Origin: Mercenaria mercenaria
Taxonomy: Eukaryota
Direction: 5' to 3'
Assembly (NCBI RefSeq): GCF_021730395.1
Contig: NC_069364.1
Span: 83,467,972-83,531,971, forward strand
Length of the DNA stretch: 64,000 bases
The position numbers were made by a program, and so were the translations under genes. Under the pieces are notes generated by a model. It was not told the origin of the DNA. It was given only the letters and a program-made list of their open reading frames with translations, and made no database searches. Shown here one piece after another: positions 5,650 through 57,410 of this stretch; the stretch's first letter is position 1; each line of letters starts with the position of its first letter.

Positions 5650-6080
5650 ACCATGACAAACTCTGATACTGGTTTCATATTTACAACTTACCATGACAAA
5701 CTCTGATGCTGGTTTCATATTGACAACTTACCATGACAAACTCTGATGCTGGTTTCATATTTACAACTCACCATGACAAACTCTGATGCCGGTTTTATAT
5801 TGACAACTTACCATGACAAACTCTGATGATGGTTTCATATTGACAACTTACAATGACATACTCTGATGCTGGTTTCATACTGACAACTTACTATGACAAA
5901 CTCTGATGCTGGTTTCATATTGACAACTTACCATGACAAACTCTGATGCTGGTTTCATATTTACAACTTACCATGACAAACTCTGATGCTGGTTTCATAT
6001 TTACAACTTACCATGACAAACTCTGATGCTAGTTTCATATTACAACTTACCATGACAAACTCTGATGCTAGTCTCATATT
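5650..6080. repeat. Minisatellite, 40-bp unit about 10.5 times (ccatgacaaactctgatgctggtttcatatttacaactta)
   Basis: Exact 40-bp periodicity. Confidence 0.9.
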
Positions 6081-6399
6081 TCCTGCTGTTTTCACAACAC
6101 AAGATGGAAACAATTCTTTCCATGCTGAAAATAAAATGTGTATTATTAAATAAGTTTAGAATATAAGTCATTTAATTGTCAAAATATAGATACTGTCACA
6201 ACTTTATTTTTTTTAGAATTTTTATCCATAAACATTTTTTGTGCCTGTTCTTAAATCAAGGACAAGTTTATGTCACATTTAGGTAAATGGGCAACTGAAA
6301 CAAAATGCTATTAAATCCAAAACTAAAAGTACCAAACAGTCTTATGAGAAGATGCATATTCACAACACCTTTACAAATCAATAAAATTCTATCTCTCCA

Positions 6400-9034: not shown

Positions 9035-9870
9035 CTGTAAATGTACTCAAATCATAACTCAAAAAGTCAAACAGATAAATTTTTAGGCACTCTTTTCTTA
9101 CCTCTGAAAATACAGTGAAACCCCTCTAAACCAGAACCCCTGAAAAGTGGTAACCCGTCAAACCACTTCAAACTGAACAAACACCTTGGTTCATAATAAT
9201 GTTCTTTTATTGAAAATAACCACTCTAAATTAGAATATCACTCAAAAGTGAATGTTTCCTTTGGTCCAGAGGTTGTTTTGTATATAGTTGTTCCACTGTA
9301 GCTGCATGCAACGTTATCACAGTTATGATGGACCAAGGTACAGTGATACTAGTGACTATGGACATCACATTTATATAATCCTACATTTTAACCATTCACA
9401 TGGTCTTCATCAGGAATACATGAACTACACACAACAACTGCCTGTGTTATTTCCATCATCTACCTGCACTATCTCATTCAATTACCTATTATTCCATAGT
9501 TAATTACTCAAGTTGTTTTTCTTAATTTATGTGTCATTTCCTATACTATGCTGTTTACTTTCCTTTAACTAACTGCGTAACCTACGCAGCATTCTTTTAA
9601 TAATCTGTCATTGCTCTAAGTTACTTATAGTTAATGTAAACTTGTATTTTAGTTATGTTACTTTTTATATGTAATGAAGTATGTTCAGAGTATGTTATTT
9701 CCCTAATCCCTTACCTGTGTAGTTCAGTCTTGTTTCTCATAAGGACAAGTGCTTTTTCCTTTCGTTATCTGTGTAACTTCCCTTACCTGTGTAGTTTCCA
9801 AATAATACAAGTATTCTTTCTCATGAATACAAGTGTTGTTTCCTTTCATTATCTGAGTCATTTCCCTTAC

Positions 9871-10032
9871 CTGTGTAGTTTCCTTTAAAGAATCTTTCTT
9901 CCATGGAGCGACACTTCCTGGCAATCTGAAACTAACCATCTCCCCTTCTACCTGTAATTCTGCCACATATGTGATCTTGATCAAGACCGTAGCTCCTGGT
10001 GGAAGATTGCCAACACTTACAGTAAACACATC
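9871..10032 (-). CDS. PARP4-like exon, VIT domain continued (DVFTVSVGNLPPGATVLIKITYVAELQVEGEMVSFRLPGSVAPWKKDSLKETTQ)
   Basis: Acceptor gatttcag and donor ACACAG|GTAAGG. VIT-domain block F.V.VGNLPP...V.I.I.YV.EL, 54 codons in phase 0. It overlaps ORF 9724..10029(-). Confidence 0.8.
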
Positions 10033-10835
10033 CTGAAATCAAATAAGAAACTTTTTTGAAGTCTGTGCACAAAAAGAATTTTACTTTTTCATTTAAGGCT
10101 TTATTCTGCATGACTAAATGAATGTTTAAACGTTCTCATCATTCTTTCATAGTCTCTGTAAACATCAAATATTGCATCACTGTTAAGAAAAACAACAACC
10201 TTATTTGCCACTCATATTCATCAGAAAATAAGACTTCAACTTACAAGAACCAAATTTGCAATACTGTTGTATATCATGGCATTGCATTTTCCATATGTAA
10301 TGGGTTTGTACTAGTTCAACATCTTTTAGAAGTTTGCCAAAATCATTTTTTTTTACATAAAATTACATGGACATTTTTTGGCATAAAATTAAAATTGCAT
10401 TGGACAAGTTAAGGTGAATAATGAGACTAACCCATACAGTTTAGGCCAAAAATAATTTCTAACAAAAATCCATGAAAATTGAGTTCTCTGAAAGTGACTT
10501 TTGGTACAAATTTATTGACATAAGATTTTTACAAGATATTCTTATAAATAACCAAAAATATTGTGCAGAAGGTAGTAAACTGTTGCAACGCTGCTGAAAT
10601 AATGCAGAAAATTTATATTCTTCTTGCATTTTTACCAATATCTAACTTTTGTTCTCACCAAGTTTATCATTTTTCTGTGTCATATATGCCAAACTGTGTG
10701 GAAATGACCACATTGAAAAATTTCACCCAAACTGTGGGTGAGTAGCTTTAAGAATTTAAAATATGTTCTTACAAGAAAAGAGCAAAAATAAAATTGTTCC
10801 TTGTGAAGTCCAGACTTATGATGCTATGTACTTAC

Positions 10836-15206: not shown

Positions 15207-16072
15207 TGGCGGTAAAGTTCTGTCGGCCGTGAGGTGAGCGGATACGGTGTCTGTATGTTTGCATTCAAGTTGCGTACTTTGGGGTATCATATGTTTACCA
15301 GTTTGTGTTAACTGGATAGTAAAAGGTTTTGCCCTAGTACTTGGCAATTCCTAGTGTTGCGTGTGTTGCGTACGTTGCGTTGCTCTCAGTGGTGTCACTT
15401 TGCCTTGCCTTGCCTTGCCTTGCCTTTCATTGACTCGTGTTGCGGTTTTGCTCATTCTCGGTGAAACCCGAAATGGGTGGAATGGTAGCTCGACGTTCAA
15501 TTGAAATTGTTGTGTGTTTGCATTTGAGTGATACCTGTTATAAAGTGCAAAGTGTCTTGTGTTGCTTTGCCTTTGAGTGACACCTGTTACAAAGTACAAA
15601 GTGTCTTGCGTTACTTTGCGTTGTTTGAGTGATACCTGTTACAAAGTACAAAGTGTCTTGCATTGCTTTGCCTTGTGGTCCGTTGTGTTATACTGCCTCG
15701 CTTTACATTGGCTAGGGTTGTGCATTTGACCGCATCCCGGTGACACCCGGGCTGGGTTGGATTCACAATTCGAAGTTCGATGGATTGCGCAGTTGCGTTG
15801 TTTTTGCAAGCCTTGGGTTGGTGCGTCTGTTCTCCTCTCGGTCGACGGATTTTGCTGTGCTTTTAACGACTCTACACGGTGAGACCCTTGTTGAGTCATG
15901 AGCGGCCGATCAACTCCCAATATTGTCAATATACTTTTACTGAATTTAATTAAATTATTACAAAATGTATCATGCGTATGTTTAACTATCGTTGAAAGTA
16001 TCAATGCATATTCTTGATGAATAAAGAGTGTTGTATGAGATAATTGGTTTTTTATTTGAGTAATAAAATAAT
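15207..16072. repeat. 866-bp direct repeat R, copy A (copy B at 17354-18213), inside the 7.8-kb PARP4-like intron
   Basis: tggcggtaaagttctgtcggccgtgaggtgagcgg...gagtaataaaataat is over 98% identical between copies. It contains a ccttg microsatellite and three 60-bp internal subrepeats (gagtgatacctgttacaaagtacaaagtgtcttgcgttactttgc). Confidence 0.9.
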
Positions 16073-17353: not shown

Positions 17354-18213
17354 TGGCGGTAAAGTTCTGTCGGCCGTGAGGTGAGCGGATACGGTGTCTG
17401 TATGTTTGCATTCAAGTTGCGTACTTTGGGGTATCATATGTTTACCAGTTTGTGTTAACTGGATAGTAAAAGGTTCTGCCCTAGTACTTGGCAATTCCTA
17501 GTGTTGCATGTGTTGCGTATGTTGCGTTGCTCTCAGTGGTGTCACTTTGCCTTGCCTTGCCTTGCCTTTCATTGACTCGTGTTGCGGTTTCGCTCATTCT
17601 CGGTGAAACCCGAAATGGGTGGAATGGTAGCTCGACGTTCAATTGAAATTGTTGTGTGTTTGCATTTGAGTGATACCTGTTATAAAGTGCAAAGTGTCTT
17701 GTGTTGCTTTGCCTTTGAGTGACACCTGTTACAAAGTACAAAGTGTCTTGCGTTACTTTGCGTTGTTTGAGTGATACCTGTTACAAAGTACAAAGTGTCT
17801 TGCATTGCTTTGCCTTGTGGTCCGTTGTGTTATACTGCCTCGCTTTACATTGGCTAGGGTTGTGCATTTGACCGCATCCCGGTGACACCCGGGCTGGGTT
17901 GGATTCACAATTCAAGTTCGATGGATTGCGCAGTTGCGTTGTTTTTGCAAGCCTTGGGTTGGTGCGTCTGTTCTCCTCTCGGTCGACGGATTTTGCTGTG
18001 CTTTTAACGACTCTACACGGTGAGACCCTTGTTGAGTCATGAGCGGCCGATCAACTCCCAATATTGTCAATATACTTTTACTGAATTTAATTAAATTATT
18101 ACAAAATGTATCATGCGTATGTTTAACTATCGTTGTAAGTATCAATGCATATTCTTGATGAATAAAGAGTGTTGTATGAGATAATTGGTTTTTATTTTGA
18201 GTAATAAAATAAT
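17354..18213. repeat. 866-bp direct repeat R, copy B
   Basis: See copy A. The spacing between copies is 2147 bp. Confidence 0.9.
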
Positions 18214-27585: not shown

Positions 27586-27649
27586 GTTATGGAACTCATC
27601 AGTTGTAATCAAACTATCAACAATTATTACTGTTCAGTATTCATCTGCA

Positions 27650-28500
27650 TGTTAACCTTTAGCCTACTGGTTGCAAGTGATGTTGCCTTTGTGGCCAGTG
27701 TAGATCAAGATCAGCCTGCATGCTAACCTTTAGTCTACTGACTGCAAGTGATGTAGCCTTTGTGGCCAGTGTAGATCAAGATCAGCCTGCATGTTAACCT
27801 TTAGCCTACTGACTGCAAGTGATGTTGCCTTTGTGGCCAGTGTAGATCAAGATCAGCCTGCATGTTAACCTTTAGCCTACTGACTGCAAGTGATGTAGCC
27901 TTTGTGGCCAGTGTAGATCAAGATCAGCCTGCATGTTAACCTTTAGCCTACTGACTGCATGTGATGTTGCCTTTGTGGCCAGTGTAGATCAAGATCAGCC
28001 TGCATGTTAACCTTTAGCCTACTGACTGTAAGTGATGTTGCCTTTGTGGCCAGTGTAGATCAAGATCAGCCTGCATGTTAACCTTTAGCCTACTGACTGT
28101 AAGTGATGTTGCCTTTGTGGCCAGTGTAGATCAAGATCAGCCTGCATGTTAACCTTTAGCCTACTGACTGCAAGTGATGTTGCCTTTGTGGCCAGTGTAG
28201 ATCAAGATCAGCCTGCATGTTAACCTTTAGCCTACTGACTGCAAGTGATGTTGCCTTTGTGGCCAGTGTAGATCAAGATCAGCCTGCATGTTAACCTTTA
28301 GCCTACTGACTGCAAGTGATGTTGCCTTTGTGGCCAGTGTAGATCAAGATCAGCCTGCATGTTAACCTTTAGCCTACTGACTGCAAGTGATGTTGCCTTT
28401 GTGGCCAGTGTAGATCAAGATCAGCCTGCATGTTAACCTTAGCCTACTGACTGCAAGTGATGTAGCCTTTGTGGCCAGTGTAGATCAAGATCAGCCTGCA
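27650..28500. repeat. Satellite, about 62-bp monomer, about 14 copies, derived from MITE family B
   Basis: The unit ttaacctttagcctactgactgcaagtgatgttgcctttgtggccagtgtagatcaagatcagcctgcatg is the rc of the family-B segment gcaggctgatcttggtctgcactggtcacaaaggcaggatcacttgc..cagcaggcttatggttaa. Confidence 0.85.
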
Positions 28501-28801
28501 TGTCCCTGCATGCTCACCTTGGTCTGCACTGTTCCACAAGTCTGTAAATTTTCAGTGAACACCCCTTTGAATAATAAGTGGTACTTCTCAAAATGAATGA
28601 TGGACCAGTCCATTTTAGAACTATAGCAAGGTAAAGGTTACCAGTAAGTTATAGTTAACATCCAAGAACCACAGACAAATTATTAAATGGTTAAGTGATT
28701 GCTGTCACTCTGTAAGTTTTTTACTAACAGCACAAACACCCTATTTGCCGTCAAAATACTTAAAGAACCCCAGAAACTATCCTAGAAGTCTTAATACTTA
28801 C

Positions 28802-29986: not shown

Positions 29987-30998
29987 AGGTCAAACAGAAC
30001 TTTGGGATATTGATGGAATTAAACAAAATGGGAAATACAGAAAATGGTGATATTTATTTCCCATATATACATGTTCTGAAGATATAAAAAACTTGAAATA
30101 TGTACACTGCTTGTACAAATACTGATATTTGATTGATAGATTTCAAAATATTCAAACAATGACCGCCCTACCATCCAATATCATCTAAGACACCCCAACT
30201 CATGCATTTAAAACGCGGAAATTCTGTAAGAAATGTTTACTCTTTTTGAGACCTTTAAATCAAAATGACCTTATGCATTCCATGCTACAGAATTTAAACA
30301 TTTTGCTCTAATTATACCAACACTGTTTGCACTGATCATGGGCATGTTTTAAGTTTTTCCGAGATCAATACAATTGATCTCAGTTATATACATTACCTAC
30401 TTGTAGGAACAAATTATACAAACAGACTAGATATATTGCTTTTGGTAAACACATTTATCTCTCAGTAAGACCTCAATGGCTTCCTTAAGCAATGATATTA
30501 AGGTGTATACATAACTTTATATGTGTGCATATAAATAGATACTGTGAAATCATTTAATTTCCAGGGCATGAAATTTCGTGATTTTGGTCAAAACGGCAAT
30601 TTCGTGGGGATATGAATTCGTGGATTTCAATTTTTGATTTGTTTGAACATACAATATATGGCAATTTTATTTTTTCGTTGCAATGGGATCAAATTTCGTG
30701 GATTGACTCAACCACGAAATCCACGAAAATTAGTCCCCCACAAATATTAATGATTTCAAAGTATTGTTCTACCTAACATTTGTAAGCACTATTTTTTAAA
30801 CCACCACAATTTAATTACATCCTTTATTCATGCTGTTGCAACCTGCTCTAATGATTTCTGTATTGCAAATTAAGGCCTAGAGCTGATAGTTTACAGTCTC
30901 TCCTGTTCAACTGAATTTTACAACATGATCTTTTTTAATATTTTTAATGACCCTGTGTATAAATCTACTTTAAAACATTATTTTAATATACTATATAC

Positions 30999-31197
30999 CT
31001 GATATCTTTCCTTCCTTGAGTCCCTCAGATTTAGATTTTCCCGCCATCAAATAGTCATCTGTACTGAGCTGGTGCCCGGCTTCAATACTCATCTTGATCC
31101 AGTCTACAGACACAACCGGAAAACCGTACTTGGCCGCCATTTTACATTTATATGAGAATTCTGCCTTCTTGCTATCATCACACACAACATGTGTACT
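30999..31197 (-). CDS. PARP4-like exon: BRCT domain C-terminal half (STHVVCDDSKKAEFSYKCKMAAKYGFPVVSVDWIKMSIEAGHQLSTDDYLMAGKSKSEGLKEGKIS)
   Basis: Acceptor catattcag and donor CAG|GTATAT. The BRCT signature (THVV..., GFPVVS.DWI..SI..G..L...DY) overlaps ORF 30991..31185(-). Confidence 0.7.
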
Positions 31198-31721
31198 CTG
31201 AATATGTAAATATATATATGTATGGGTATCACAATAAAAAGGACCACCACGATAGATTTCCTCAAAACCTTTTCTAGTGGTTAAGCTGTCCAGTGAGAAC
31301 CTTTTTTGTATATCTGCATCATAGTTTAATGAAAGAGCATGTTAATACAGTAAACGAAAATAGATTAAGCAGTTTTTAATATATTAAGTGCCTTTTCTAC
31401 CACATTCTGTATTGTACTGATGCAAAAACAGAGTTTCCAAATTTTAGTGTGAAGACAGCTTAAGTTCTGTTAGTGCCTCAGTCCTGGTCATCAATGACAT
31501 TTTTTTTTTCTTTGATTTTACAGGATCTTGAAAAACTTTTATTTCAGACAGAAAATTATGTTCTGGAATATAAATTAAATTGCTATAGCATAGTACATAG
31601 TAATAAGAGGATTACTTTCTATCTATCTTCAGTTGGTATAATGCATGTGATTTTATCTCCATACTAATGTTCAATCAGATCTTCAGTTCCCAAAACTTAC
31701 AGAATGTGTAATTTGACATAC

Positions 31722-34319: not shown

Positions 34320-34990
34320 TTCTAAGTGTATTAGCGCAAAATAATTTAACTAGACAAATGACCACCCTAGACAGTCAAGTGTATTATCACTAGACAATTG
34401 ACCACCCTAGACAGTCAAGTGTATTATCACTAGACAACTGACCACCCTAGACAGTCAAGTGTATTGTCATTAGACAATTGACCACCCTAGACAGTCAAGT
34501 GTATTGTCACTGGACAATTGACCACCCTAGACAGTCAAGTGTATTGTCACTGGACAATTGACCACCCTAGACAGTCAAGTGTATTGTCACTAGACAATTG
34601 ACCACCCTAGACAGTCAAGTGTATTATCACTAGACAATTGACCACCCTAGACAGTCAAGTGTATTATCACTAGACAAATGACCATCCTAGACAGTCAAGT
34701 GTATTATCAACAGTCAAGTGTATTATCACTAGACAAATGACCACCCTAGACCGTCAAGTGTATTATCATTAGACAAATGACCACCCTAGACAGTAAAGTG
34801 TATTATCATTAGACAAATGACCATCCTAGACAGTCAAGTGTATTATCACTAGACCAATGACCACCCTAGACAGTCAAGTGTATTATCATTAGACAATTGA
34901 CAACCCTAGACAGTCAAGTATATTATCACTAGACAATTGACCACCCTAGACAGTTAAGTGTATTATCATTAGACAAACTAGAGCTATCAC
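34320..34990. repeat. 40-bp satellite, block 1 (ctagacaattgaccaccctagacagtcaagtgtattatca)
   Basis: About 16 head-to-tail 40-bp units. Confidence 0.9.
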
Positions 34991-35039
34991 TAAAGATGAT
35001 GAATATACACCCCCCCCGCATGCACTGACACAGTACATT

Positions 35040-35790
35040 GCAATTTGACGCACACAAGATTGCATAGTTATGTGGACTGTATGTATATAGACTGTATGTA
35101 TACAGTATAGTAACAAAAAACAAAGTTCCATAACTATACAGAATATTTACCTAAAAGAATGTAACATGCACCATGCACAACTAGGGTTGGAACTGATCAC
35201 TTGTGTGAAGTTTCATTAAATTGTGTGCAAGGGTTTGGTAGATTAGGCACGCACAAGATTGCATATGCAGACTGTATGTACATAGTATGTTAACAAGAAA
35301 CAAAGTCCCATAACTCTGCAATTTTTGTCGCTGAAAGAACCTAACATGCCCCATGCACAACTACTGTTGTTACTGATCACTTGTGTGAAGTTTCATTAAA
35401 TTGTGTCAAGGGGATGAGGAGAGGTGGTGCGCACAAGATTGTGTCTATGTATATAGTATAGTAACAAAAAAACAAAGTCCCATAACTCTGCAAATTTTTT
35501 TTCTAAAAGAACCTAACATGCCCCATGCACAACTACTGTTGGTACTGATCACTTGTGTGAAATTTCATTAAATTGTGTCAAGGGGATGAGGAGAGATGGT
35601 GCGCACAAGATTGTGTCTATGTATATAGTATAGTAACAAAAAAAAAAAGTCCCATAACTCTGCAAATTTTTTTTCTAAAAGAACCTAACATGCCCCATGC
35701 ACAACTACTGTTGGTACTGATCACTTGTGTGAAGTTTCAAAAATTCTGTCAAGGGGATAAGGAGAGATGGTGCGCACAAGATTGCGTCTA
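35040..35790. repeat. Tandem repeat, about 172-bp unit, 4 copies, interrupting the 40-bp satellite
   Basis: The unit contains gcacaagattg..tatgtatatagtatagtaacaaaaaaacaaagtcccataactctgcaa...cctaacatgccccatgcacaactactgttggtactgatcacttgtgtgaagtttcattaaattgtgtcaaggggatgaggagag.tggtgc. It ends in a GACA/GACG tract at 35785-35815. Confidence 0.85.
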
Positions 35791-35864
35791 CGGACAGACG
35801 GACAGACAGACAACCTGAAACCAGTATACCCCCCCCCCTTACAACTTTGTTGTCGCGGGGTACA

Positions 35865-38800
35865 ATGACCATCTTAGACAGTCAAGTGTATTATCACTAG
35901 ACAAATGACTACCCTAGACAGTCAAATGTATTATCATTAGACAAAAGACCATCCTAGACAGCCAAGTGTATTATCACTAGACAAATGACTACCCTAGACA
36001 GTCAAATGTATTATCATTAGACAAAAGACCACCCTAGACAGTCAAATGTATTATCACAGTAGACAGTCAAGTATATTATCACTAGACAAGTGACCACCCT
36101 AGACAGTCAAATGTATTATCACAGTAGACAGTCAAGTATATTATCACTAGACAAGTGACCACCCTAGACAGTCAAATGTATTATCACTAGACAAATGACC
36201 ACCCTAGACAGTCAAGTGTATTATCACTAGACAAATGACCACCCTAGACAGCCAAGAGTATTATCACTAGACAAATGACCACCCTAGACAGTCATCAGTG
36301 TATTATCACTAGACAAATGACCACCCTAGACAGCCAAGTGTATTATCACTAGACAAATGACCACCCTAGACAGTCAAATGTATTATCACTAGACAAATGA
36401 CCACCCTAGACAGTCAAGTATATCATCACTAGACAAATGACCACTCTAGACAGTCAAATGTATTATCACAGTGGACAGTCAAATGTGTTATCACTAGACA
36501 AATGACCACCCTAGACAGCCAAATGTATTTAATATCACTAGACAAATGACCACCCTAGACAGCCAAGTGTATCACAGTAGACAGTCAAGTGTGTTATCAC
36601 TAGACAAATAACCACCCTAGACAGCCAAATGTATTTAATATCACTAGACAAATGACCACCCTAGACAGCCAAGTGTATTATCACTAGACAAATGACCCCC
36701 CTAGACAGTAAAGTGTATTATCATTAGACAAATGACCATCCTAGTCAGTCAACTATATTATCACTAGACAAATGACCACCCTAGACAGTTAAGTGTATTA
36801 TCATTAGACAAATGACCATCCTAGACAGTCAAGTGTATTATCATTAGACAAAAGACCACCATAGACAGTCAAATTATTATCAGAGTAGACAGTCAAGTAT
36901 ATTATCACTAGACAAATGACCACCCTAGACAGTCAAACGTATTATCACTAGACAAATGACCACCCTAGACAGTCAAGTGTATTATCACTAGAAAAATGAC
37001 CACCCTAGACAGCCAAGTGTATTATCACTAGACAAATGACCACCCTAGACAGTCAAGTGTATTATCATTAGACAAATGACCACCCTAGACAGTCAAGTAT
37101 ATTATCACTAGACAAATGACCACCCTAGACAGTCAAATGTATTATCACAGTAGACAGTCAAGTGTGTTATCACTAGACAAATGACCACCCTAGACAGCCA
37201 AATGTATTTAATATCACTAGACAAATGACCACCCTAGACAGTAAAGTGTATTATCATTAGACAAATGACCACCCTAGACAGTCAAGTATATTATCACTAG
37301 ACAACTGACCACCCTAGACAGTCAAATGTATTATCACAGTAGACAGTCAAGTGTGTTATCACTAGACAAATGACCACCCTAGACAGTCAAGTGTATTATC
37401 ACTAGACAAATGACCACCCTAGACAGCCAAGTGTATTATCACTAGATAAATGACCACCCTAGACAGTCAAATGTATTTAATATCACTAGACAAATGACCA
37501 CCCTAGACAGTCAAGTGTATTATCACTAGACAAATGACCACCCTAGACAGTCAAATGTATTTAATATCACTAGACAAATGACCACCCTAGACATTCAAGT
37601 GTATTATCACTAGACAAATGACCACCCTAGACAGTCAAATGTATTTAATATCACTAGACAAATGACCACCCTTGACTGTCAAGTGTATTATCACTAGACA
37701 AATGACCAACCTAGACAGTCAAGTGTATTATCACTAGACAAATGACCATCCTAGACAGTCAAATGTATTTAATATCACTAGACAAATGACCACCCTAGAC
37801 AGCCAAGTGTATTATCACTAGACAATTGACCACCCTAGACAGTCAAATGTATTTAATATCACTAGACAAATGACCACCCTAGACAGCCAAGTGTATTATC
37901 ACTAGACAAATGACCACCCTAGACAGTCAAATGTATTTAATATCACTAGACAAATGACCACCCTAGACAGTCAAGTGTATTATCACTAGACAAATGACCA
38001 CCCTAGACAGTCAAATGTATTAATATCACTAGACAAATGACCACCCTAGACAGTCAAGTGTATTATCACTAGACAAATGACCACCCTAGACAGTCAAATG
38101 TATTTAATATCACTAGACAAATGACCACCCTTGACAGTCAAATGTATTTAATATCACTAGACAAATGACCACCCTAGACAGTCAAATGTATTTAATATCA
38201 CTAGACAAATGACCACCCTAGACAGTCAAGTGTATTATCACTAGACAAATGACCACCCTTGACTGTCAAGTGTATTATCACTAGACAAACGACCACCCTA
38301 GACAGTCAAGTGTATTATCACTAGACAAATGACCATCCTAGACAGTCAAATGTATTTAATATCACTAGACAAATGACCACGCTAGACAGCCAAGTGTATT
38401 ATCACTAGACAAATGACCACCCTAGACAGTCAAATGTATTTAATATCACTAGACAAATGACCACCCTAGACAGTCAAATGTATTATCACTAGACAAATGA
38501 CCACCCTAGACAGTCAAGTGTATTATCACTAGACAAATGACCATCCTAGACTGTCAAAGTAGTTTAATATCACTAGACAAATGACCACCCTAGACAGTCA
38601 ATGTATTTAATACACTAGACAAATGACCACCCTAGACAGCAAGTTATTCACAAAATACCACTGCTGTCAAGTATTAATCACTAGACAAACGACCACCTAG
38701 ACAGTCAAGTGTATTATCACTAGACAAATGACCACACCATATTAGACAAATGACCACGCTAGACAGTCAAGTGTATTATCACTAGACAAATGACCACCCT

Positions 38801-39215
38801 AGACAGTCAAATGTATTTCATATCACTAGACACATGATCAACCTAGACAGTCAAATGTATTATCATTAGACAAAAGACCACCCTAGACAGTCAAATGCAT
38901 TATCACAGTAGACAGTCAAGTGTATTATCACTAGACAAATGACCACCCTAGACAGTCAAATGTATTTCATATCACTAGACACATGATCAACCTAGACAGT
39001 CAATGTATTATCACTAGACAAAAGACCACCCTAGTACATGCCTAAGTAGTATTATTATCACTAGACAAATGACCACCCTATGACAGTCAAGTGTATTTGA
39101 TCCACCTAACACAAATTAGCACCAAATCCACTAGACAGCAAGTGTATTATCTAAATCCACTAAGGTACAACAAATGACCACCTAGATCAAGTGTATTATC
39201 ACTAGACAAATAAGT
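35865..39215. repeat. 40-bp satellite, block 2 (about 84 units, with variants gtcaaatgtatttaatatcactagacaaatgaccaccctagaca)
   Basis: Continuous 40-bp periodicity over 3.3 kb. Confidence 0.95.
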
Positions 39216-40229: not shown

Positions 40230-41510
40230 GAGCCATTTCTGATTGTTCCAAATTTCAAGACTAGCTCAAGGTCAAATTTCATTTCAGTACACATCACTGT
40301 GCATGTGGCCTATGCATGTGGTCCAAATTTGAAAGCTGTAGCTTGAGAAATGTGAAAGAAGGTCACAAGACCAATTTCAAGGTCAAAGTTCATTTCGGTA
40401 TACAAAACTATGCATATGCTTCAAATTTGAAGCCTGTAGCTTTAGAAATGTGAAAGTAGGTCACTAGGTCAATCTCAAGATCAAAATTCATTTCGGTACA
40501 CAAAACTATGCATGTGGTCCAAATTTGAGGGCTGTAACTTGAGAAATGTGAAAGTAGGTCACTAGGTCAAAATCAAGGTCAAATTTCATTTCGGAACACA
40601 AAACTATGCATGTGGTCCAAATTTGAAGCCTGTACCTTCAAAAATGTGAAAGTAGGTCACTAGGTCAATGTCAAGGTCAAAGTGTTTTTCAGTACACAAA
40701 ACTATGCATGTGGTCCAAATTTGAAGGTTGTAGCTTGAGAAATGTGAAAGTAGGTCACTAGGTCAATGTCAAGGTCAAAGTTTCTTCGGTACACAAAACT
40801 ATGCATGTGGTCCAAATTTGAAGGTTGTAGCCTGAGAAATGTGAAAGTAGGTCACTAGGTCAAAATCAAGGTCAAATTTCATTTCGAAACACAAAACTAT
40901 GCATGTGGTACAAATTTGAAAGCTGTAGCTTGAGAAATGTGAAAGAAGGTCACAAGACCAATTTCAAGGTCAAAGTTCATTTCGGTATACAAAACTATGC
41001 ATGTGGTCCAAATTTGAAGGCTGTAGCTTGAGAAATGTGAAAGTAGGTCACTAGGTCAATGTCAAGGTCAAAGTTTTTTTCGGTACACAAAACTATATGC
41101 ATGTGGTCCAAATTTGAAGGCTGTAGCTTGAGAAATGTGAAAGTAGGTCACTAGGTCAAAATCAAGGTCAAATTTCATTTCGGAACACAAAACTATGCAT
41201 GTGGTCCAACATTGAAGCCTGTACCTTCAAAAATGTGAAAGTAGGTCACTAGGTCAATGTCAATGTCAAAGTTTTTTTCCGTGCACAAAACTATGCATGT
41301 GGTCCAAATTTGAAGCCTGTACCTTCAAAAATAAGAAAGTAGGTCACTAGGTCAATGTCAATGTCAAAGTTTTTTTCAGTGCACAAAACTATGCATGTGG
41401 TCCAAATTTGAAGGCTGTAGCTACAGAAATGTGGAAGTATGTCACTAGGTCAAAATCAAGGTCAACTCATGTCAATGTTCATCTTGCCACTCAAAACTAT
41501 ACATGTGGTC
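40230..41510. repeat. Satellite, about 100-bp monomer, about 13 copies, related in inverted orientation to the 145-bp satellite at 2025-3695
   Basis: The unit is gaaatgtgaaagtaggtcactaggtcaaaatcaaggtcaaatttcatttcggaacacaaaactatgcatgtggtccaaatttgaaggctgtagcttga. The segment ggtcactaggtcaaa.tcaagg matches the rc of the 145-bp monomer (ccttgatttgacctagtgacc). Confidence 0.8.
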
Positions 41511-41811: not shown

Positions 41812-42895
41812 CCCTAGACAGTCAAGTGTATTATCACTAAACAAATGACCACCATTAACAGTAAAGTGTATTATCACAAGACAATTGACCATCCTAGACA
41901 GTCAAGTGTATTATCACTAAACAAATGACCACCCTAGCCAGTCATGTGTATTATCACTAGACAATTGACCACCCTAGACAGTCAGGTGTATTATCACTAG
42001 ACAAATGACCACCCTAGACAGTCAGGTGTATTATCACTAGACAAATGACCACCCTAGACAGTCAGGTGTATTATCACTAGACAAATGACCACCCTAGACA
42101 GTCAGGTGTATTATCACTAGACAAATGACCACCCTAGACAGTCAGGTGTATTATCACTAGACAAATGACCACCCTAGACAGTCAGGTGTATTATCACTAG
42201 ACAAATGACCACCCTAGACAGTCAGGTGTATTTTCACTAGACAAATGACCACCCTAGGCAGTCACGTGTATTATCACCAGACAATTAACCACCCTAGACA
42301 GTCAGGTGTGTTATCACTACAAAATTGACCCCCCTGGACAGTCAGGTGTATTATCACTAGACAAATGACCCCCCTAGACAGTCAGGTATATTATCACTAG
42401 ACAAATGACCACCCTAGACAGTCAGGTGTATTATCATTAGACAAATGACCACCCTAGACAGTCAGGTGTATTATCTGCCACTAGACAAATGACCACCCTA
42501 GACAGTCAGGTGTATTATCATTAGACAAATGACCACCCTAGACAGTCAGGTGTATTATCACTAGACAATTAACCACCCTAGACAGTCAGGTGTGTTATCA
42601 CTACAAAATTGATTCCCCTAGACAGTCAGGTGTATTATCACTAGACAAATGACCACCCTAGACAGTCAGGTGTATTATCACTAGACAAATGACCACCCTA
42701 GACAGTCAGGTGTATTATCACTAGACAAATCACCACCCTAGACAGTCAGGTGTATTATCTGCCACTAGACAAATGACCACCCTAGACAGTCAGGTGTATT
42801 ATCACTAGACAAATGACCACCCTAGACAGTCAAGTGTATTATCACTAGACAAAAGACCACCCTAGACAGTCAAGTGTATTATCACTAGACAATCT
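41812..42895. repeat. 40-bp satellite, block 3 (variant gtcaggtgtattatcactagacaaatgaccaccctagaca)
   Basis: About 27 units. Confidence 0.9.
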
Positions 42896-43087
42896 GACAC
42901 TCTATCTTAATAATCTTTGAACAAATTATTTTTAAAGTTACATGTACTATGATTTGCAGTGGAACAGTAGTTAAATTACCTGCGACTGCATTCTACAGTA
43001 TTGAGAAAAATGCCAATTTGCAATTAATTTACATCAAATGATGCAGGTGTGTATCTATCTATGTAATAATTATAGGTTATTATACAA

Positions 43088-43192
43088 GGCTGGTGTGCCT
43101 TAAGGCGATATTGGCATACTAGGAGAGGTATAGGACCGAGGGCAAATACCAGTCTAGTATGCTAATATCGCCTTAGGACACACTAGCTCTGT
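43088..43192. repeat. About 100-bp imperfect palindrome
   Basis: ctggtgtgccttaaggcgatattggcatactag ... ctagtatgctaatatcgccttaggacacactag. Confidence 0.55.
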
Positions 43193-43321
43193 TTTATAAC
43201 CTTTTTATTGCATATGTTCTACTGTTAAAGTGAAAACGAGAAAACTAAAATAATTTAATGTTGCAGAGCGACACTGAATGTTCATGTAATGCGCGGGAAC
43301 GTCAATGCTGTCTGATGAGGC

Positions 43322-44729
43322 TGACATCTATGGCACGCCAATTGTCCAATAATTACGTGAACCCAGGTTCACAGTCGAAAAACTAGGATTAACGATCGAT
43401 AAACTAGGTTTTTCGAACGTAAAACCAGGTTTTTCGAATACTAACCTATATTTTCAAGCAAAAACATAAGATAACCATAGTTTATGCTCGTGAACCCAGG
43501 TTTACGTTCGATAAACTAGGTTTCTTGACTGAACTATGAATTTCTGTTGTTATCCTAAGTTCATGAGTGTGAACCTATATTTACGGGCGTAAACCTATAT
43601 TTACGGGTGTTTACGGGCGTAAACCATAGTTTATGAACGTGAACCTATGTTAACGACCGTGAACTTGGGTTTACAACCGTAAACATAGGTTCACACTCGT
43701 GAACATAGGATAACGACCTAAAATCATAGTTAGGTTTGAGAAACCTAGTTTATCGAATGTAAACCTAGGTTCACGTTTGTAAACTATGGTTCACGCTCGT
43801 AAACCTAAGTTCACGGTCATAAACATAGGTTCTCGCTCGTAAACATAGGTTCACGTCTGTAAACTATGGGTCACGGCAAGCCAATTATCCAATAATTACG
43901 TTCTTGGTCGAAAAACTAGGATTAACGAATACTAACCTATATTTTCGAGCGAAAACATAGAATAACGGGCATAATTGTCCTTGGTTTACGTTCTTGAACC
44001 CATGTTAACGATCGATAAACTAGGTTTTTCCAATTGAGCAAGAACATATTTTTATGGGCGTGAACCTGGGTTCACAAGCGTGAACCATAGTTTACGAACA
44101 TGAACCTATGTTTACGACCAAAAATCATAGCTTTGTTCGAGAAACCTAGTTTATCGAACGCAAACCTATGTTCACGCTCGTATACCCAAGTTCACGTTCG
44201 CAAACATAGTTTCACATTCGTAAACATAGGTTACGTTCATAAACAAAGTTTCACATCCATAAACTATAGTTCACGGTCATAAACATAGGTTAACGTCTGT
44301 AAACATAGGTTCATGGCCGTAAACCCATGTTCACGCCCGAAATTAATAACTGATTTTATAATCCTAATATATCAACCGTAAACCATGGTTTACGTATGAT
44401 AATCTAGGTTTCTCGACTGAACTACGAATTTCAGCCGTTATCTTATGTTTACGGTCGTTATCCTATGTTTACGCTTGTGAACCCCAGTTCACACTCGTAA
44501 ACCTTAGTTTACGACCATGAACTTGGGTTTACAAGCGTGAACCTATCTTTATGAGCTTGAACTATGGTTTACGGCGTTATCCTATGTTTTCACTCGAAAA
44601 TATAGGTAAGTATTCGAAAAACCTGGTTTTACGTTCGAAAAACCTGGTATATCGATCGTTAATCTCAGTTTTTCCACCGTGAACCTAGGTTCACGTAATT
44701 ATTGGACAACTGGCGTGCCATAGACGTCA
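43322..44729. mobile_element. Foldback-like element: about 170-bp terminal inverted repeats around degenerate 20-21-bp tandem subrepeats
   Basis: The left end tgacatctatggcacgccaattgtccaataattacgtgaacc.aggttcac..tcgaaaaactaggattaacgatcgata is the rc, at about 90%, of 44560-44729. The interior is made of gtaaacctaggttcacg-type 20-mers and holds an extra degenerate TIR-like copy at 43865-44030. Confidence 0.55.
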
Positions 44730-46477
44730 TTTCCTTTCAAACATTTGTTTTAAATTCATGCATTCTAGGGCCATAGTTTCTTGTGTCAACCTTATTCAAC
44801 AACACTAAGAGGAAGCTAATGAAATTATGTTAATATACCATGCATTCTTGTTAGTTTGTATATACTTCACATTCTGTCAGTGGAAGTATAAAATCTGGAT
44901 GTTTTGCCAAACAGTTGTTTATTTATAATATATATGCCTCACTTCTCTTCTCTTTCATCACACTAACATATATACTTTACATATTTACAAGTCTTGAACT
45001 CATATGTCAATAATTCGTGCGGACCATTTTACCTTTGACTCAGGGTGGGTTTTTTTTTGCCATTTTTATACAGTCGACATCGTACTTGCGACCACCTCTA
45101 TTAAGCGATATTTGCATTAAACGACCAGTCAAAATCCCTCCCGAACGTTTTCAGTATATATATTCATTCCATTAAACGACTTTTTTATTAAACGACTAGC
45201 GACCACATTAATGTAGTCCCAACAGGTAAAATATTCGACAAAAGTATCTATTAAGCGACCGGGTACCAAAATTCTACCGGGCATTTCTTCATCTGTGTTA
45301 TTAGCGAGTACGTTTTGCACATGACTGAATGCAATTAACCTTTGTATCAGTCAAACTGACAAACAATCTATTCATAATTTTCACGGTGTGTGGTCTTGGA
45401 AAAGTGTTCCCGATGTTAAAACAGATTTTGAAACCATACATGTATGTTCATAATAAATAAAGTTACATTAACAGTTAAAAATAACTTCCCTTTTCATCTG
45501 ACTGAAATTCATTAAGAGACCATTCCATTAAGAGATCACTTTTTAGCAGTCCCTTGGGTGGTCTCTTATACAATGTCGTCTTTAGCTATTATTCGGCTAT
45601 ATTCCCAATGCCAAAAATGAGTGCAAAAATTCCCAATCCACATTCTGAAAAAAAAAATTCATCAAAATTACACAAACATTGACCAAATTATGGACAATTT
45701 TGTAATGGTAGTATGTTAAAGAGGTTGTACAATGTGAAACAAGTGTATGAGAAAGTGCTTAAACACATCCTTACTATATCCTATGGGACTAAATATTTCC
45801 CAATTCAGAACATTTACGCGTCAAAGTCCCAATTTTTGGGGTATAGGCTATGTTACCGAAACAGCAAGAGAAAACCCTGCTACTACAATGTGTTACATTG
45901 AAAAGCGGTTTGTGTCCTGATGTTGCAAGTGTAACAACAAATATACAGAGTTCATTATGATCTTATTTTAAACTTATCATTTTGTTTGATCTGAATCTTC
46001 ATAAAGTTGACATAGCATTCCAAAGCCCATCTCACTAAAGAAGTATCTGAGGGTAGACATCTACAGTTAGAAATGAGTAATGGCAATAGTGATTTTGAAT
46101 ACCCATAAATAACTCGAAACTGCCAAGGTCACCGAGGTCAGGACTCCTGCAAAGGAAGTGATATTTCATAAATCAGACGATGCCTTTGTATTTGCAATTT
46201 AATGATGTATTTATGAATATGTAAAAATGATATTGTACATGCTGAAGCATTTGTCCAATTTTCATTTTTATAATAACTGGTTCGGAATACCAGGGGTAAC
46301 ACTGTATACTCTCTGGGACATCAAAAGAGATGGGATAACTCTAAAATTATTATGTCATACCACAGTCTGAGTCTAAGTGAGTTCAGATTGGACATGCTCG
46401 TAGCTGCCTGTATGCAAATACGCAGTTGTGTAATGAAATTCTGACAGTTTAATTTTTTGTCCTTCCCAAATCACCCA

Positions 46478-48825: not shown

Positions 48826-49290
48826 TGATCACTACCAAATAGAATGTAAGCCTCCGCAGGTCTAGTCACAAGTAGTCCAAATATAAATAGTACTAATCTT
48901 TTTTCCTTTCCTAGTGCATTTTCTCGGCAGCAACGTGCTTACTTTTACCCTACCGCGTTTCAGTATGTATCACTTTGCATTCTATTGAAATCAGCATGTT
49001 CCTATTGCATGCTAGATAAAAATGGCGGCGTAAGAATTTAATGTCACGAAAAGAGAAACTGAAAGAAGCGAAAAGTAGTAAATTCAGCGGGTTGTATTTA
49101 ACGAACTGTAGTTTTCTTATATAAAAGTTAACATCCCATTTTCTTTTTGTTTTTCTAAAGTAGCGATCTAGTTCTTTATGGGAATATAAGTCTCTGAAAA
49201 TCTGATATGCTAGAAAATGTCGAAAAACCGTTATGAAGTGAGTGACTTTTATATGAAATAAAGAACAGCTGGATTTAGTGGTGTTCAGCC
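48826..49290. repeat. About 465-bp direct repeat, copy 1 (second copy 49797-50265, about 99% identical)
   Basis: ctgatcactaccaaatagaatgtaagcctccgcaggtctagtcacaagtag...ggtgttcagcct is present twice in direct orientation, separated by about 510 bp. The repeat begins TG and ends CA (tgatcac...gtgttca). Confidence 0.85.
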
Positions 49291-49796
49291 TATAAGGGGC
49301 AATACATGGTATTTTCTGAAACCCCTCGAAAATGAATGGAAATGCCATTAATCTATTCTTTATGATGTAAAACGGTAACAAATGGCTAAAAACGCTTAAA
49401 TTTCTTGTGTTTTTGGAATTAAGATCAAATTTTCGACCAGGTGGCACTATTTTGGTTCGTTTTAAGACCTAGTAAATGTCTATTCTCGATTTTAGCACTT
49501 CAGTTGCCTAAATAATATTGAAATTAGCATGTTTCTGAATGAAAATGACAAACATCGTAACGATTAAATGGATGTTAAATGTAAATTCCACGAATAAGGT
49601 AAAATAAATTGAAATATTGCCTGCACAGGGCTAAATTTTGCATATTTTTGGGGATGGGGGTGACCTGTAATGAATTGTCATTTCTCTACATTTTCTCAAT
49701 ATTTTGCACCAAAACTAAGCAGAATCATTGTAAAATAGGTGTACCTTGAAAATGAATGCAAATTCATGGAAAAATCAAACAAAAATTTTCTCTTAT

Positions 49797-50265
49797 AGGC
49801 TGATCACTACCAAATAGAATGTAAGCCTCCGCAGGTCTAGTCACAAGTAGTCCAAATATAAATAGTACTAATCTTTTTTCCTTTCCTAGTGCATTTTCTC
49901 GGCAGCAACGTGCTTACTTTTACCCTACCGCGTTTCAGTATGTATCACTTTGCATTCTATTGAAATCAGCATGTTCCTATTGCATGCTAGATAAAAATGG
50001 CGGCGTAAGAATTTAATGTCACGAAAAGAGAAATTGAAAGAAGCGAAAAGTAGTAAATTCAGCGGGTTGTATTTAACGAACTGTAGTTTTCTTATATAAA
50101 AGTTAACACCCCATTTTCTTTTTGTTTTTCTAAAGTAGCGATCTAGTTCTTTATGGGAATATAAGTCTCTGAAAATCTGATATGCTAGAAAATGTCGAAA
50201 AACCGTTATGAAGTGAGTGAATTTTATATGAAATAAAGAACAGCTGGATTTAGTGGTGTTCAGCC
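49797..50265. repeat. About 465-bp direct repeat, copy 2
   Basis: See copy 1. ORFs 48950..49447(-) and 49925..50365(-) simply reflect this duplication. Confidence 0.85.
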
Positions 50266-50729
50266 TTAACCGAAATATGATACCGTTCGAACCAACAGTC
50301 GTTAGAGAAGTATCCAAATTTCGAATAAGGTAGATGTGACAAACGAAACTGACTGAAAGAAACATAATAAATAATCTGATTTAAAGATCTGATTTACCTT
50401 ACATGCAAAACTCGACGCAAAACACTTTAGATAAGGAAATATTCAACACTTCCGCAACAATACACATCAAGAAATCTGGGTTAGTTACTGTTTGTTTAAT
50501 ACATACAGTAATAAGCGTTTGGATGATTGAGAATCACCCGCCAAAATGTCATCGCTCAAAATAACAAATGAGTCCATTTATCTACATATTTGTCCTTGGG
50601 TTAACAGTGCAAACAAACAATGTATATCAAAAACTGTCTTTTTTTGCATAGTTAACTGCAAGGGAAAATGATTTGATTACAAATTATGTTAAATCTACGT
50701 GTCGTATAACTATCCAAAGACGATTGGAG

Positions 50730-52826: not shown

Positions 52827-55800
52827 CACGGTGGGGAAACCAAGAATGCAACGTCATCAAAACCCAGCGCAAATGAGCTGACCACACACAAATTTACGTC
52901 GATTCAGGTCAGAAAAGTCTTGTAACTTTTTTATTACTGCAGCTTCCGACTCGAGATAAAGAGCACCGTACCCGGCCTGGAGTATACTATTCTGCGGTAG
53001 TGTTCCATATTGTACGTATAGCTTGGTTTTTGCTCGAAAACTCGAACAGTTGGCAAAGAAGGTATGAGCTGTACCACACTTTTGTCTAAGAAAGTGAGTT
53101 TTGACCGCATTTTCGTGAAATGAGGACAAATTTGAAGCTCATTTAATATCAGTGACTAGCATAACAGTCAATCATTGTTTTATTTTGCTATTTTCAAGGA
53201 TATCTGACGATATTTTTTCAAAACAAACACCGTTATTAAAATGAGAACATCCACACTGACGACTTTGTTGGAGAACATCCACACTATTATCATGCACTAT
53301 TTAGAAAAATCAAGACAAAACCGTTTTTGTTTTAAAATCTGACATGTGAAAAAGTAAGGTAAAAGTGATAAGTTTCACTGCATTCAATCTGCGCGTCATT
53401 CGTTATTTTGTTTCAGATGGCAGTATTTTTTCTTTTTATGACATACTGCAAATTTAATAATGTCAATTTGAAAATGTTGTTGCAATCCGTAGGGCATTTG
53501 ATCTATATAAATATTTAGTAGAGTAGATTCTACATGAATAAGATCGTGTTATATATAATAATTATAATATAAAATATAAAAATGGAAAAGAAAACATAAA
53601 TCTTTTTTCCACCTTTTTAGTGTTTGAAATTACTTTTCTCCAATGTCATTGCAGTATTTTTGGAATTATGGGGAAATTAATTTTGGTAAATCAAGATTTA
53701 CTTTCATTCGTTTATTAACCCGGTAAGTCACATATACTGTACGCAGAGCTTAAATTTGTAAACAAAAAATAATTTTAAACACTAAACAGGTTAGCCAATA
53801 ATTAGAAAAATAAAACTTCTCATCCCATTTAAATTATTTTAGCACCAATAACATATGCGAGATAACAAAGTCTATGTAAATTTCTTTTACCAAACCACAA
53901 ACTTATACTTAAACACCCTTACAATTTTCCTGGCTGAACTATTATTAACGAACAATACGGCTCAAGCTCTATAAAACAATTTGAAATTATTAAGATCTGC
54001 TAATGTGAATAGGTGCCCGCAACTAGTAAATTATTAATACAGTTGTAACAGTATTTAGTGATTGAAATTATTTTGTCCAATGGCATTGCAGAACATTTCA
54101 AATTATGGGCAATTCATTTTAATAAATCAGCATTTGATTGAAGTGCGATATTAGGGGCTAAGCTTCAGCCGGAAAACCTGCTCTGCGGGAACACTTAAGA
54201 CAGTCACAGCGGAGAGAGTATGGAAAGGTGTATAAATACTGACGAAAGTTTAAGGTGTTACATGAAAATCTTTCCCGTATGATGCTTAAGGTAGTTCGGA
54301 TCCATTTTTGTTTTCTTCACTGATTTGAAATTTGATTAAACTCCCGATTTTTCAAAATTATAGAATAAACTTGCAACTGTTGGCAAATGTAAATTGATAG
54401 AGTCACGTGCTTTTTCTGCTGAACAAAATGTTTTGACCTTAAGTAACTTTTTGTAATATGTGCCTATAGGAAATCATCTTTTCAAAAGTAAATTGTCCCC
54501 AATGAAGCTTTTAATGAATCTTCTCAGTCAAAAATATAAGCTACGGTCTTACATGTGATTAAATCAAATGTATAAAACCGTGTTTTTATGTTTGCCTTTA
54601 TTTTAGTTTATACAGAATTCATTTTAGGTCGATTTTGAAGGAAGTTCTATAACTTACATTCATCACTCTCGACCCCTCATTCCTGATGGGATCAATCGCC
54701 ACGGGGGTATGAGAGAAGAGGCCAGTTTCCCTTTTAATGCTGAACGCCAAGCAAGGGAGCTACTGGTACCATTTTTCACGTCTTTGGTATGACGCGGCCG
54801 GGAATCGAATCCACGACCTCACGCACTCAAAGCGGACGCCCTAACACTTGGCTATAGACCTTGCCTTTATTTTAAGAGATCAAGCTGATTTAAAGACACC
54901 ATTTAGAACTATTTAATGTTCAAACAATTTTAATATCATGTTTTATCTTTAGAAATATAATATTGTTGTCATGGGATTGCCATTCAATAAACGAATTTCG
55001 GTTCCGTATGCAGAACCCAGGCTTTAGTCTACGTAATGATAATACATTGTATGCCTTTCTATCGGTTTTTTATGTATAAGGTTGGATTGTATTTGATATT
55101 TGAAAGAGACTTCCATTTGCTGAAATAAGATTTAAAATATCTAACAGTTATAATATTTAGTTAAAGTACTAACTATCCGTGTTTTATGCACTTTGGGATG
55201 GATATAGTTCTAAACAAAATAACAATACAATAACTATTTCAATCCTCTATTTGCTTTTAAACTTTGTGTGCAGGACTTTTATGCGACTTTGTCTTGTTAT
55301 CTTAAAATAATGTTTTTCCTAAGATGCAATCAATCTGAACACCGTGTCCTTATGCCACACTTTACACAGAGATTAATGTTAGCCTAACATGTGCTCAGCC
55401 ATTGCTATATAATTTGGCAGATCTATTTTAACTGGTCTACAGACTTGCGGTAAATGGTATGAACTGCTGATTGTATGTATAGACGACATTTGTTGTTGAA
55501 CAACGTAGCTTGACTGCCTAAGACACAGCTTTTAGGAAGCATTACTGCAATAATGGTAATTAAGAGTGTGGATGTTCTCCAACAAAGTCGTCAGTGTGGA
55601 TGTTCTCATTTTAATAACGGTGTTTTTTTTTAATAAAATATCGTCAGATATCCTTGAAAATAGCAAAATAAAGCAATGTTTGACTATTATGCTAGTCACT
55701 GATATTAAATGAGCTTCAAATCTGTCCTCATTTCACGAAAATGCGGTCAAAACTCACTTTCTTAGACAAAAGTGTGGTACAGCTCATACCTTCTTTGCCA

Positions 55801-56024
55801 ACTGTTCGCGTTTTCGAGCAAAAACCAAGCTATATGTACAATATGGAACACTACCGCAGAATAGTATACTCCAGGCCGGGTACGGTGCTCTTTATCTCGA
55901 GTCGAAAGCTGCAGTAATAAAAAAGTTACAAGACTTTTCTGACCTGAATCGACGTAAATTTGTGTGTGGTCAGCTCATTTGCGCTGGGTTTTGATGACGT
56001 TGCATTCTTGGTTTCCCCACCGTG
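52827..56024. mobile_element. Non-autonomous DNA transposon with long terminal inverted repeats, candidate Transib-like
   Basis: Arms 52827-53285 and 55565-56024 are reverse complements, about 460 bp at about 97% identity. The termini read 5'-CACGGTGGGG...CCCCACCGTG-3'. The element is flanked by the direct repeat AGTGT at 52822-52826 and 56025-56029. The 2.3-kb interior is non-coding and contains a SINE2 copy. It is inserted into the LINE. Confidence 0.6.
54722..54862 (-). mobile_element. tRNA-like SINE family 2, inside the long-TIR element
   Basis: The rc matches 60749-60885 over about 135 bp. Confidence 0.6.
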
Positions 56025-57159: not shown

Positions 57160-57410
57160 AACAAACATATGAGCCGCGCCACGTGAAAAATCAACATAGT
57201 GGCTTTGCGACCAGCATTGATCCAGACCAGCCTGCACATCCGCGCAGTCTGGTCAGGATCCATGCTGTTCGCTTTCAAAGCCTATTGCAATTAGAGAAAC
57301 TGTTAGCGAACAGTATGGATCCTGACCAGACTGCGCGGATGCGCAGGCTGGTCTGGATCCATGCTGGTCGCAAACGCACTATGTTGGTTTTCTCAAGGCT
57401 GGGCTCAAAA
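57160..57410. mobile_element. Palindromic MITE family A, long copy
   Basis: About 90% identical to 25418-25665. Confidence 0.7.

Follow-up and report, generated by a model that had tools for sequence, protein, structure and literature searches.

A rearranged 1.4-kb foldback-like structure built of short palindromic repeats in animal genomic DNA

The tandem repeats of the Drosophila FB elements are 10, 20 or 31 bp in length, and the target-site duplications of Galileo are short (7 bp). Muta1, a MULE from Aedes aegypti described as a "type 2 foldback element", has terminal inverted repeats (TIRs) of about 145-150 bp, composed of a 10-bp imperfectly palindromic terminal motif and nine 12-bp subterminal repeats, and its natural non-autonomous derivatives carry unequal repeat numbers at their two ends (PMC5499845). 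Experiments on Muta1 showed that its subterminal repeats strengthen the binding of transposase, are indispensable to cleavage and increase excision, and that the palindromic tip is also of importance (PMC5499845). The composite TIRs of Tm1 from Meloidogyne (Mutator/Phantom) vary in length, with 13-15-bp repeats behind short end motifs; its members include MITE-like non-coding forms of about 1 kb, the two TIRs average 93% identity, and the duplications are of 9 bp, with 45 of 53 complete copies flanked by 8-10 bp (PMC3169594). Tetris, from D. virilis, is organized in flanking, tandem-repeat and inner domains around a non-coding middle and produces 8-10-bp duplications; only three "structurally complete" copies were found among many rearranged ones (PMC4079207). 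Galileo, a Drosophila element of the P superfamily, has long repetitive inverted ends whose tandem repeats carry extra binding sites for the transposase (THAP), and its case shows that more than one superfamily has given rise to a foldback anatomy (PMC3688188). The bivalve elements pearl and Cg HINE are non-autonomous MITEs or Helentron-derived elements carrying short satellite-like arrays (PMC7492417).

The structure described here was found in a 64,000-nt stretch of DNA (hereafter the window; all positions are counted from its first letter), which is eukaryotic, with 36% G+C, a single ORF longer than 150 codons and dozens of tandem arrays. It is located in animal DNA that is either intergenic or upstream, about 12 kb past the BRCT exon of a PARP4-like gene, on the upstream side of that gene (Table 1). 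The best matches of the PARP4-like exons were 81-93% identical, on fragments from ENA and Logan contigs (accessions returned for the matching contigs: ERZ13706889, ERZ25878582, GCA_012263305.1 and GCA_029979725.1), so the source genome seems to be absent from the protein collection.

Table 1. Positions of the repeat structure, its parts and the neighbouring PARP4-like exons in the 64-kb window.
Feature	Position	Strand	Basis or remark
VIT exon, PARP4-like (vault PARP) gene	9727-10038	-	Pfam and protein match
BRCT exon, PARP4-like (vault PARP) gene	30994-31341	-	Pfam and protein match
Whole element, 1408 bp, about 70-72 units of 20-21 nt, non-coding	43322-44729	.	Long imperfect palindrome
Left terminal 8-mer TGACATCT, decayed TGACGTCx palindromic tip, inner 6-mer GACATC	43322-43329	+	
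Left inverted end (outer domain O)	43322-43475	+	Period 21 at 43376-43438 (TRF), self-comparison, unit threading
Unit 1: outer end, hairpin module, regular array	43322-43874	.	Self-comparison, threading
Internal hairpin module	43473-43791	.	76% self-complementary over 320 nt
Most regular array, about 4 units of GTAAACNTAGGTTCACGNNC	43792-43874	+	TRF and threading
Unit 2, colinear direct copy of unit 1	43865-44338	+	77% identity, 346/448 aligned positions
Third end copy	43875-44033	+ (direct to left end)	26-mer search, alignment
AT-rich spacer, not fitting the unit	44339-44376	.	Threading rows match only 11-14 positions
Right-arm array, opens with landmark B direct	44377-44575	+	77% identity to 43489-43595
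Right inverted end	44576-44729	-	90.8% identity to left end
Right terminal 8-mer AGACGTCA, inner palindromic 6-mer GACGTC	44722-44729	-	

All 1408 bp of the element could be threaded onto one 20-nt unit, GTRAACCTAGGTTYACGNYC, by wrap-around alignment, which gave 72 rows, 53 of them matching at least 14 of the 19 specified positions, and a score of 1178, as compared with -113 ± 27 for shuffles and with -44 and -164 for flanks of equal length. The 20-21-bp subrepeats of the original prediction were recovered by TRF as periods of 20 and 21, and the 16-mer GTGAACCTAGGTTCAC occurred, at up to three mismatches, at 17 sites that all fell within 43357-44694 (0.15 expected), its sole perfect copy being in the right end. 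Together with a neighbouring C and G, the unit makes up an 18-nt palindrome, CGTRAACCTAGGTTYACG (also written CGTGAACCTAGGTTCACG), followed by a 2-nt spacer. The best-kept positions form symmetric half-sites (A4, 98%; A5, 93%; C6, 97%; T12, 91%; T13, 100%; A15, 91%), unlike the variable centre and spacer.

Since the unit is itself palindromic, any two arrays resembled each other at 60-78% in either orientation in the self-comparison, and 90 inverted pairs were counted in the region. True orientation was given by the A/G asymmetry of the half-sites and by a landmark motif, B (CGATAAACTAGGTTTCTYGAC), which was found in direct orientation at positions 43505, 44009 and 44393, but turned round at 43735 and 44135. 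Apart from the outer ends and some landmarks, nothing clearly exceeded this palindrome background.

Self-comparison of the window showed the two ends to be 91% complementary over 154 nt without gaps, and their direct alignment yielded 139 matches, 14 mismatches and one gap (139/153). With one gap allowed, the similarity reached about 175 nt, beyond which it fell abruptly to the array background (58-65%); the true high-identity inverted repeat is the outer ~154-175 nt only. Both ends terminate at the same base. The terminal 18-mer TGACRTCTATGGCACGCC was present only at the two ends within the 64 kb, and the 26-mer GGCACGCCAATTGTCCAATAATTACG, taken from the end, only at both ends and at 43875 (0.00 expected for each in shuffles). 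Besides a unique terminus of about 35 nt, the left end holds a single palindromic unit (GTGAACCCAGGTTCAC) and some five variant units of 21 nt, of the CGAAAAACTAGGTTTTTCGAA type. The TIR comprises a terminal motif with an 8-nt near-palindromic tip and then about six subrepeat units inside 154 nt. Composite ends of this kind, 154-175 nt long at 91% identity and made of 20-21-nt units, are those of foldback TIRs. A continuation of the inverted repeat past 43322 and 44729, seen by eye as about eight matches in 12 nt with one gap, was unconvincing, and BLAST of the two flanks of the element returned no flank-to-flank inverted match.

The partial third TIR-like copy, formerly placed at 43865-44030, was confirmed at 43875-44033, in direct orientation to the left end. 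It carries the 26-mer with two mismatches (43875-43900), is 82-83% identical to either outer end, has deletions of 10 and 42 nt, lacks the outermost 10 nt, and keeps CpGs that the two outer ends lost in different ways. Two adjacent or nested units had been suggested on this ground. A direct duplication of the left ~0.5 kb was indeed found (units 1 and 2 in Table 1), but the missing outer 10 nt of the inner copy speak for an internal duplication or rearrangement of about 0.5 kb and against a second complete element.

From end to end, the element is 62.6% self-complementary. The hairpin module runs from a direct B through a GTGAAC...GTTTAC array and a GTAAAC...GTTCAC array to an inverted B, and contains an inverted pair with 89% similarity over 53 nt. 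A TRF run of period 20 (43759-43864, 5.3 copies) includes part of the regular array that follows. The AT-rich spacer is a possible middle domain of the element. The array of the right arm proved to be a direct, not an inverted, relative of the left-arm array at 43489-43595, which shows that the interior is rearranged and that this is no simple two-armed foldback; the element is a rearranged mosaic rather than a clean two-armed palindrome. Duplications and rearrangements inside the element are usual in foldback families (PMC4079207, PMC3169594).

No ORF beyond a stop-free stretch of 63 codons was present in the element. Folded as single-stranded DNA, the whole element reached a minimum free energy (MFE) of -402 kcal/mol in a structure whose outer stem is formed by the left and right ends, and two of its parts gave z-scores of -22 and -18.5 (the latter for 43322-43874) against dinucleotide shuffles. 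The element thus has the properties of a foldback, a single strand that folds back on itself and a short, non-coding middle. This anatomy, the lack of coding capacity and the fold-back potential were observed directly, and they bear out the foldback-type anatomy of the original prediction, with its composite inverted ends of subrepeats.

The outer 8 nt at both ends constitute a TGACGTCA-like near-palindrome. No target-site duplication of 8-10 bp was present in the flanks (ctgatgaggc / tttcctttca), and no direct repeat of 8-11 bp with up to two mismatches was found when the boundaries were shifted symmetrically by up to 14 nt. Among the direct repeats at such boundaries, the 6-mer GACATC/GACGTC (GACRTC) alone exceeded 5 nt; its single mismatch is a CpG transition. 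As GACGTC is palindromic, this sole candidate for a target duplication, of 6 bp, would look the same as the terminal bases of the inverted repeat, the reading to which the two informative positions of the 8-mer point. Duplications of 6 bp are not known from elements other than hAT6, IS3EU and Dada; a length of 9 bp would point to MULE/Phantom. With asymmetric boundaries, ACGTCA, extended to ACGTCAAT/ACGTCATT, recurred 15-17 nt outside the left end, a match that we take as chance. The diagnostic termini of further TIR superfamilies in which subterminal repeats occur are YARNG with an 8-bp duplication for hAT, CACNNTG with 5 bp for Transib and CACTA with 3 bp for CACTA, and P elements make duplications of 7-8 bp. 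The tips of the element (TGACRTCTATGG) have none of these hAT, Transib, CACTA or P diagnostics, and no matching direct repeat of 3, 5, 7 or 8 bp was seen at consistent boundaries.

Neither a second copy nor an empty site was found in the 64-kb window, where the element and both its flanks matched only themselves. Collections of metagenome, viral and prokaryote contigs scanned with the pattern GCCANTTNTCCAATAATTACG returned five loci, whose BLAST similarity was confined to the 21-32 nt of the pattern region, indicating chance matches; a two-unit pattern had no matches in the viral contigs. Seven concatenated stop-free translations searched against 5.8 billion predicted proteins gave 627 word candidates, none with E <= 10, and no transposase was recognized by Pfam among the ten longer stop-free stretches of the window that were scanned. 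A virus or origin-like iterons were dropped as explanations, there being no ORFs or viral matches, and a Helitron or Helentron end was set aside, as no supporting feature was noticed in the element or its flanks. A structured RNA gene was likewise dropped: Rfam returned only a weak tRNA-like match (RF00005, 60753-60815, plus strand, 30 bits against a threshold of 29), which may be the head of a tRNA-derived SINE or a degenerate tRNA.

The reading that we favour, with moderate confidence, is that the element is a DNA transposon of foldback-like type, non-autonomous, decayed and rearranged in its interior, following the type 2 foldback plan of Muta1, Tm1, Tetris and Drosophila FB. We infer its past mobility, and likewise any binding of a transposase by its units and any superfamily membership. 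Of the earlier claim of a foldback element, the anatomy therefore stands, while transposable-element status does not follow from one copy in the window, chance matches elsewhere and no 8-10-bp duplication. The assignment to the foldbacks is structural, this class being polyphyletic, and the element is not placed in Mutator/Phantom or in any other superfamily; as it lacks the 8-10-bp duplication that defines Mutator foldbacks, it is likened to the type 2 foldbacks and not placed among them.

The alternative that survives best, although we judge it unlikely, is a locus-specific palindromic minisatellite that was never mobile. Its unit would have expanded by slippage and unequal exchange, and local direct and inverted duplications favoured by hairpins or cruciforms would account for the inverted ends of 154 nt as well as for the direct duplication of 0.5 kb. 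That every part of the structure, even most of its "ends", threads onto one 20-nt unit is what such an origin predicts, and it agrees with the single locus in the 64 kb and across the collections searched, with the failure to find an unambiguous target-site duplication, with an interior pieced together from modules in both orientations, a direct end copy among them, and with the many other tandem arrays of the window. However, the match of the outer ~35 nt (TGACATCTATGGCACGCCAATTGTCCAATAATTAC) to the unit is poor (13 and 8 of 19 positions), and yet, except for the outermost 10 nt, this stretch is common to all three end copies. Moreover, foldback transposons that have been tested are laid out in exactly this way, with a terminal motif, then subterminal repeats and arrays (PMC5499845), and both ends stop at one palindromic 8-mer, a coincidence estimated at about 1/64 to 1/256 for an arbitrary breakpoint.

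It is decidedly improbable, in our view, that the structure is a chimera in which nested insertion or ectopic recombination has joined at least two copies from one foldback family. Different insertions would then have supplied the right end on the one hand and the left end with the duplicated units on the other, and the outer flanks would never have shared a duplication, as their mismatch at 8-10 bp suggests. The direct orientation of the right-arm array relative to the left-arm array and the third end copy inside the element point the same way, and Galileo copies at inversion breakpoints are reportedly chimeric, with exchanged duplications. Rearranged forms also dominate Tetris, and its relative DAIBAM has been implicated in generating inversions (PMC4079207). 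Nevertheless, the identity between the outer ends (90.8%) exceeds that of either to the inner copy (82-83%), which is more simply explained by a single element whose ends are paired; without the outer 10 nt, the inner copy does not make up a complete second element, and the reciprocal product was not seen in the window.

The observed/expected ratio of CpG was 1.58 in the element (81 CpGs, at 38% G+C), as compared with 0.52 for the remaining window and 0.43 in the surrounding 10 kb; youth, missing methylation or constraint could explain this excess. The two CpGs of the unit were changed 15-20% of the time, whereas most other core positions were changed in 0-9%, and five of the 14 mismatches between the ends fell at CpG sites. 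At three of these five (alignment columns 157 and 160/161), the middle copy retained the ancestral CG. This pattern of decay was observed directly among the three end copies and is, judging from their alignment, that of copies of one source decaying neutrally. A host-functional array upstream of the PARP4-like gene could take the form of some 70 clustered, CpG-rich palindromic sites to which proteins bind (an enhancer, an insulator or a protein sink), or that of a hairpin-RNA locus as a source of small RNAs. Such an array would suit the CpG excess, the strongly conserved half-sites beside a variable centre and spacer, the extreme hairpin potential and the presumed resemblance of the half-sites to GGTTCA (nuclear-receptor type) and GTAAACA (forkhead type) motifs, but it is very improbable, as the CpG positions decay faster than the rest of the core, like neutral DNA, and a high CpG count follows simply from two CpGs per unit.

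If the structure is a foldback-like transposon, then, on the model of elements studied by experiment, a transposase encoded elsewhere would recognize the 8-nt palindromic tip and the unique 35-nt terminus for cleavage, and the many 18-nt palindromes (half-site GTRAAC) would provide extra binding sites, probably for dimers, which would strengthen binding and the pairing of the two ends. Decay after insertion would have produced the 9% divergence of the arms, enriched at CpG sites, and the direct duplication of about 0.5 kb and the array inversions would have been gained by unequal or hairpin-mediated exchange among the palindromic units. The element is probably immobile now.

Other repeats were abundant in the vicinity and elsewhere in the window. 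A 3.2-kb element at 52829-56022 has inverted ends of 402 nt at 98% and 77 nt at 95%, termini CACGGTGGGG and, on both sides, AGTGT as a perfect direct repeat of 5 bp. This copy is probably young, and we take the 5-bp duplication and the CACNNTG tip to be a Transib signature. With its clean duplication, this inverted-repeat element indicates that the genome carries cut-and-paste transposons. A small MITE-like hairpin (43074-43202; 49-nt arms at 84% complementarity, 31-nt loop), with no sequence relation to the foldback unit, lies 120 bp to the left of the element, and another hairpin (87-nt arms at 93% complementarity, 31-nt loop) was detected at 57187-57391. About 400 bp to the right of the element (45116-45259), ATTAARCGAC occurs four times in 145 bp (0.18 expected per window), a cluster that may mark where the subterminal repeats of another element lie.

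Short dispersed tandem arrays are unusually frequent in the window. A 40-bp unit, CTAGACAGTCAAGTGTATTATCACTAGACAAATGACCACC, makes up large arrays in a single orientation at 34349-39102 and 41812-42892, which are interrupted by a 172-bp array (35095-35790) and a 98-bp array (40310-41465), and the last of them ends 430 bp to the left of the element. Further satellite-like arrays were found at 2112-3694 (145 bp x10.9), 5650-6081 (40 bp x10.8), 6483-7111 (160 bp x3.8) and 27645-28503 (71 bp x12.1, 97% identical). Direct local duplications about 1-2 kb apart were represented by two pairs: 15354-15676 / 17502-17818, with identical 49-52-bp tandem arrays, and 48953-49468 / 49928-50380, which share a long stop-free stretch that had no Pfam match in the one copy scanned (48953-49468).

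Tentatively, and as a possibility that is open to serious doubt, the locus may represent the first copy of an undescribed foldback family made of 18-nt palindromic dimer-binding sites, possibly from an unusual superfamily with a 6-bp palindromic target, GACGTC. In such a family, arms and interior would consist wholly of 18-nt palindromes, giving a CpG-island-like, cruciform-prone block. A real family would add a foldback-type element whose every repeat unit is a palindrome, and would offer a natural test of subterminal repeats as multimeric transposase-binding platforms, an idea derived from Muta1 and Galileo; if the host is molluscan, it would also be a foldback family in a phylum for which none was found described in the literature searched. 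Long imperfect palindromes are hotspots for hairpins, replication stalling, inversions and the birth of satellites, hence their relevance to assembly quality and to structural variation near the PARP4-like gene. Should the structure be only a local minisatellite, it would matter for no more than repeat masking and annotation.

Among the described systems, Galileo has ends longer than 1 kb and a P-type transposase, and no THAP-type motif was identified in the element. Pearl and Cg HINE are scattered in repeat-rich invertebrate DNA (PMC7492417), much as this window is full of arrays; their arrays lie between unrelated ends, whereas the ends of the element are built of the palindromic repeat itself. 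The Drosophila FB and Tetris elements share with it the long composite inverted ends, made of an outer domain and tandem repeats, and the small non-coding middle; many of their copies are rearranged, and their tandem repeats can seed satellites (PMC4079207). The repeats of Tetris are of about 220 bp and its ends reach 1.7 kb (PMC4079207), as compared with units of 20 nt and ends of 154-175 nt in the element. FB and Tetris are multi-copy and make duplications of 8-10 bp (9 bp), whereas the element has one copy in the window and no such duplication, and its palindromic units render direct and inverted arrays nearly equivalent. Tm1 is similar in its composite TIRs built of repeats, its non-coding members of about 1 kb and its TIR identity; its asymmetric 7-bp end motifs, Phantom-type transposase and 9-bp duplications have no demonstrated counterpart in the element.

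Muta1 is the closest in plan, paralleled in the element by the 8-nt palindromic tip and the 20-21-nt repeats within an end of 154-175 nt. The Muta1 repeats are of 12 bp, with 3-4-bp linkers, and non-palindromic, whereas the units of the element are palindromes; duplications of 8-9 bp flank Muta1 and none was found here. Muta1 encodes a transposase, whereas the element is non-coding and filled with repeats throughout; the likeness is one of plan, with no sequence similarity claimed. The original statement that foldbacks are sparsely described outside a few taxa was overstated. The structure is real but of a known kind; its foldback anatomy matches the published accounts (PMC4079207, PMC3169594, PMC5499845).
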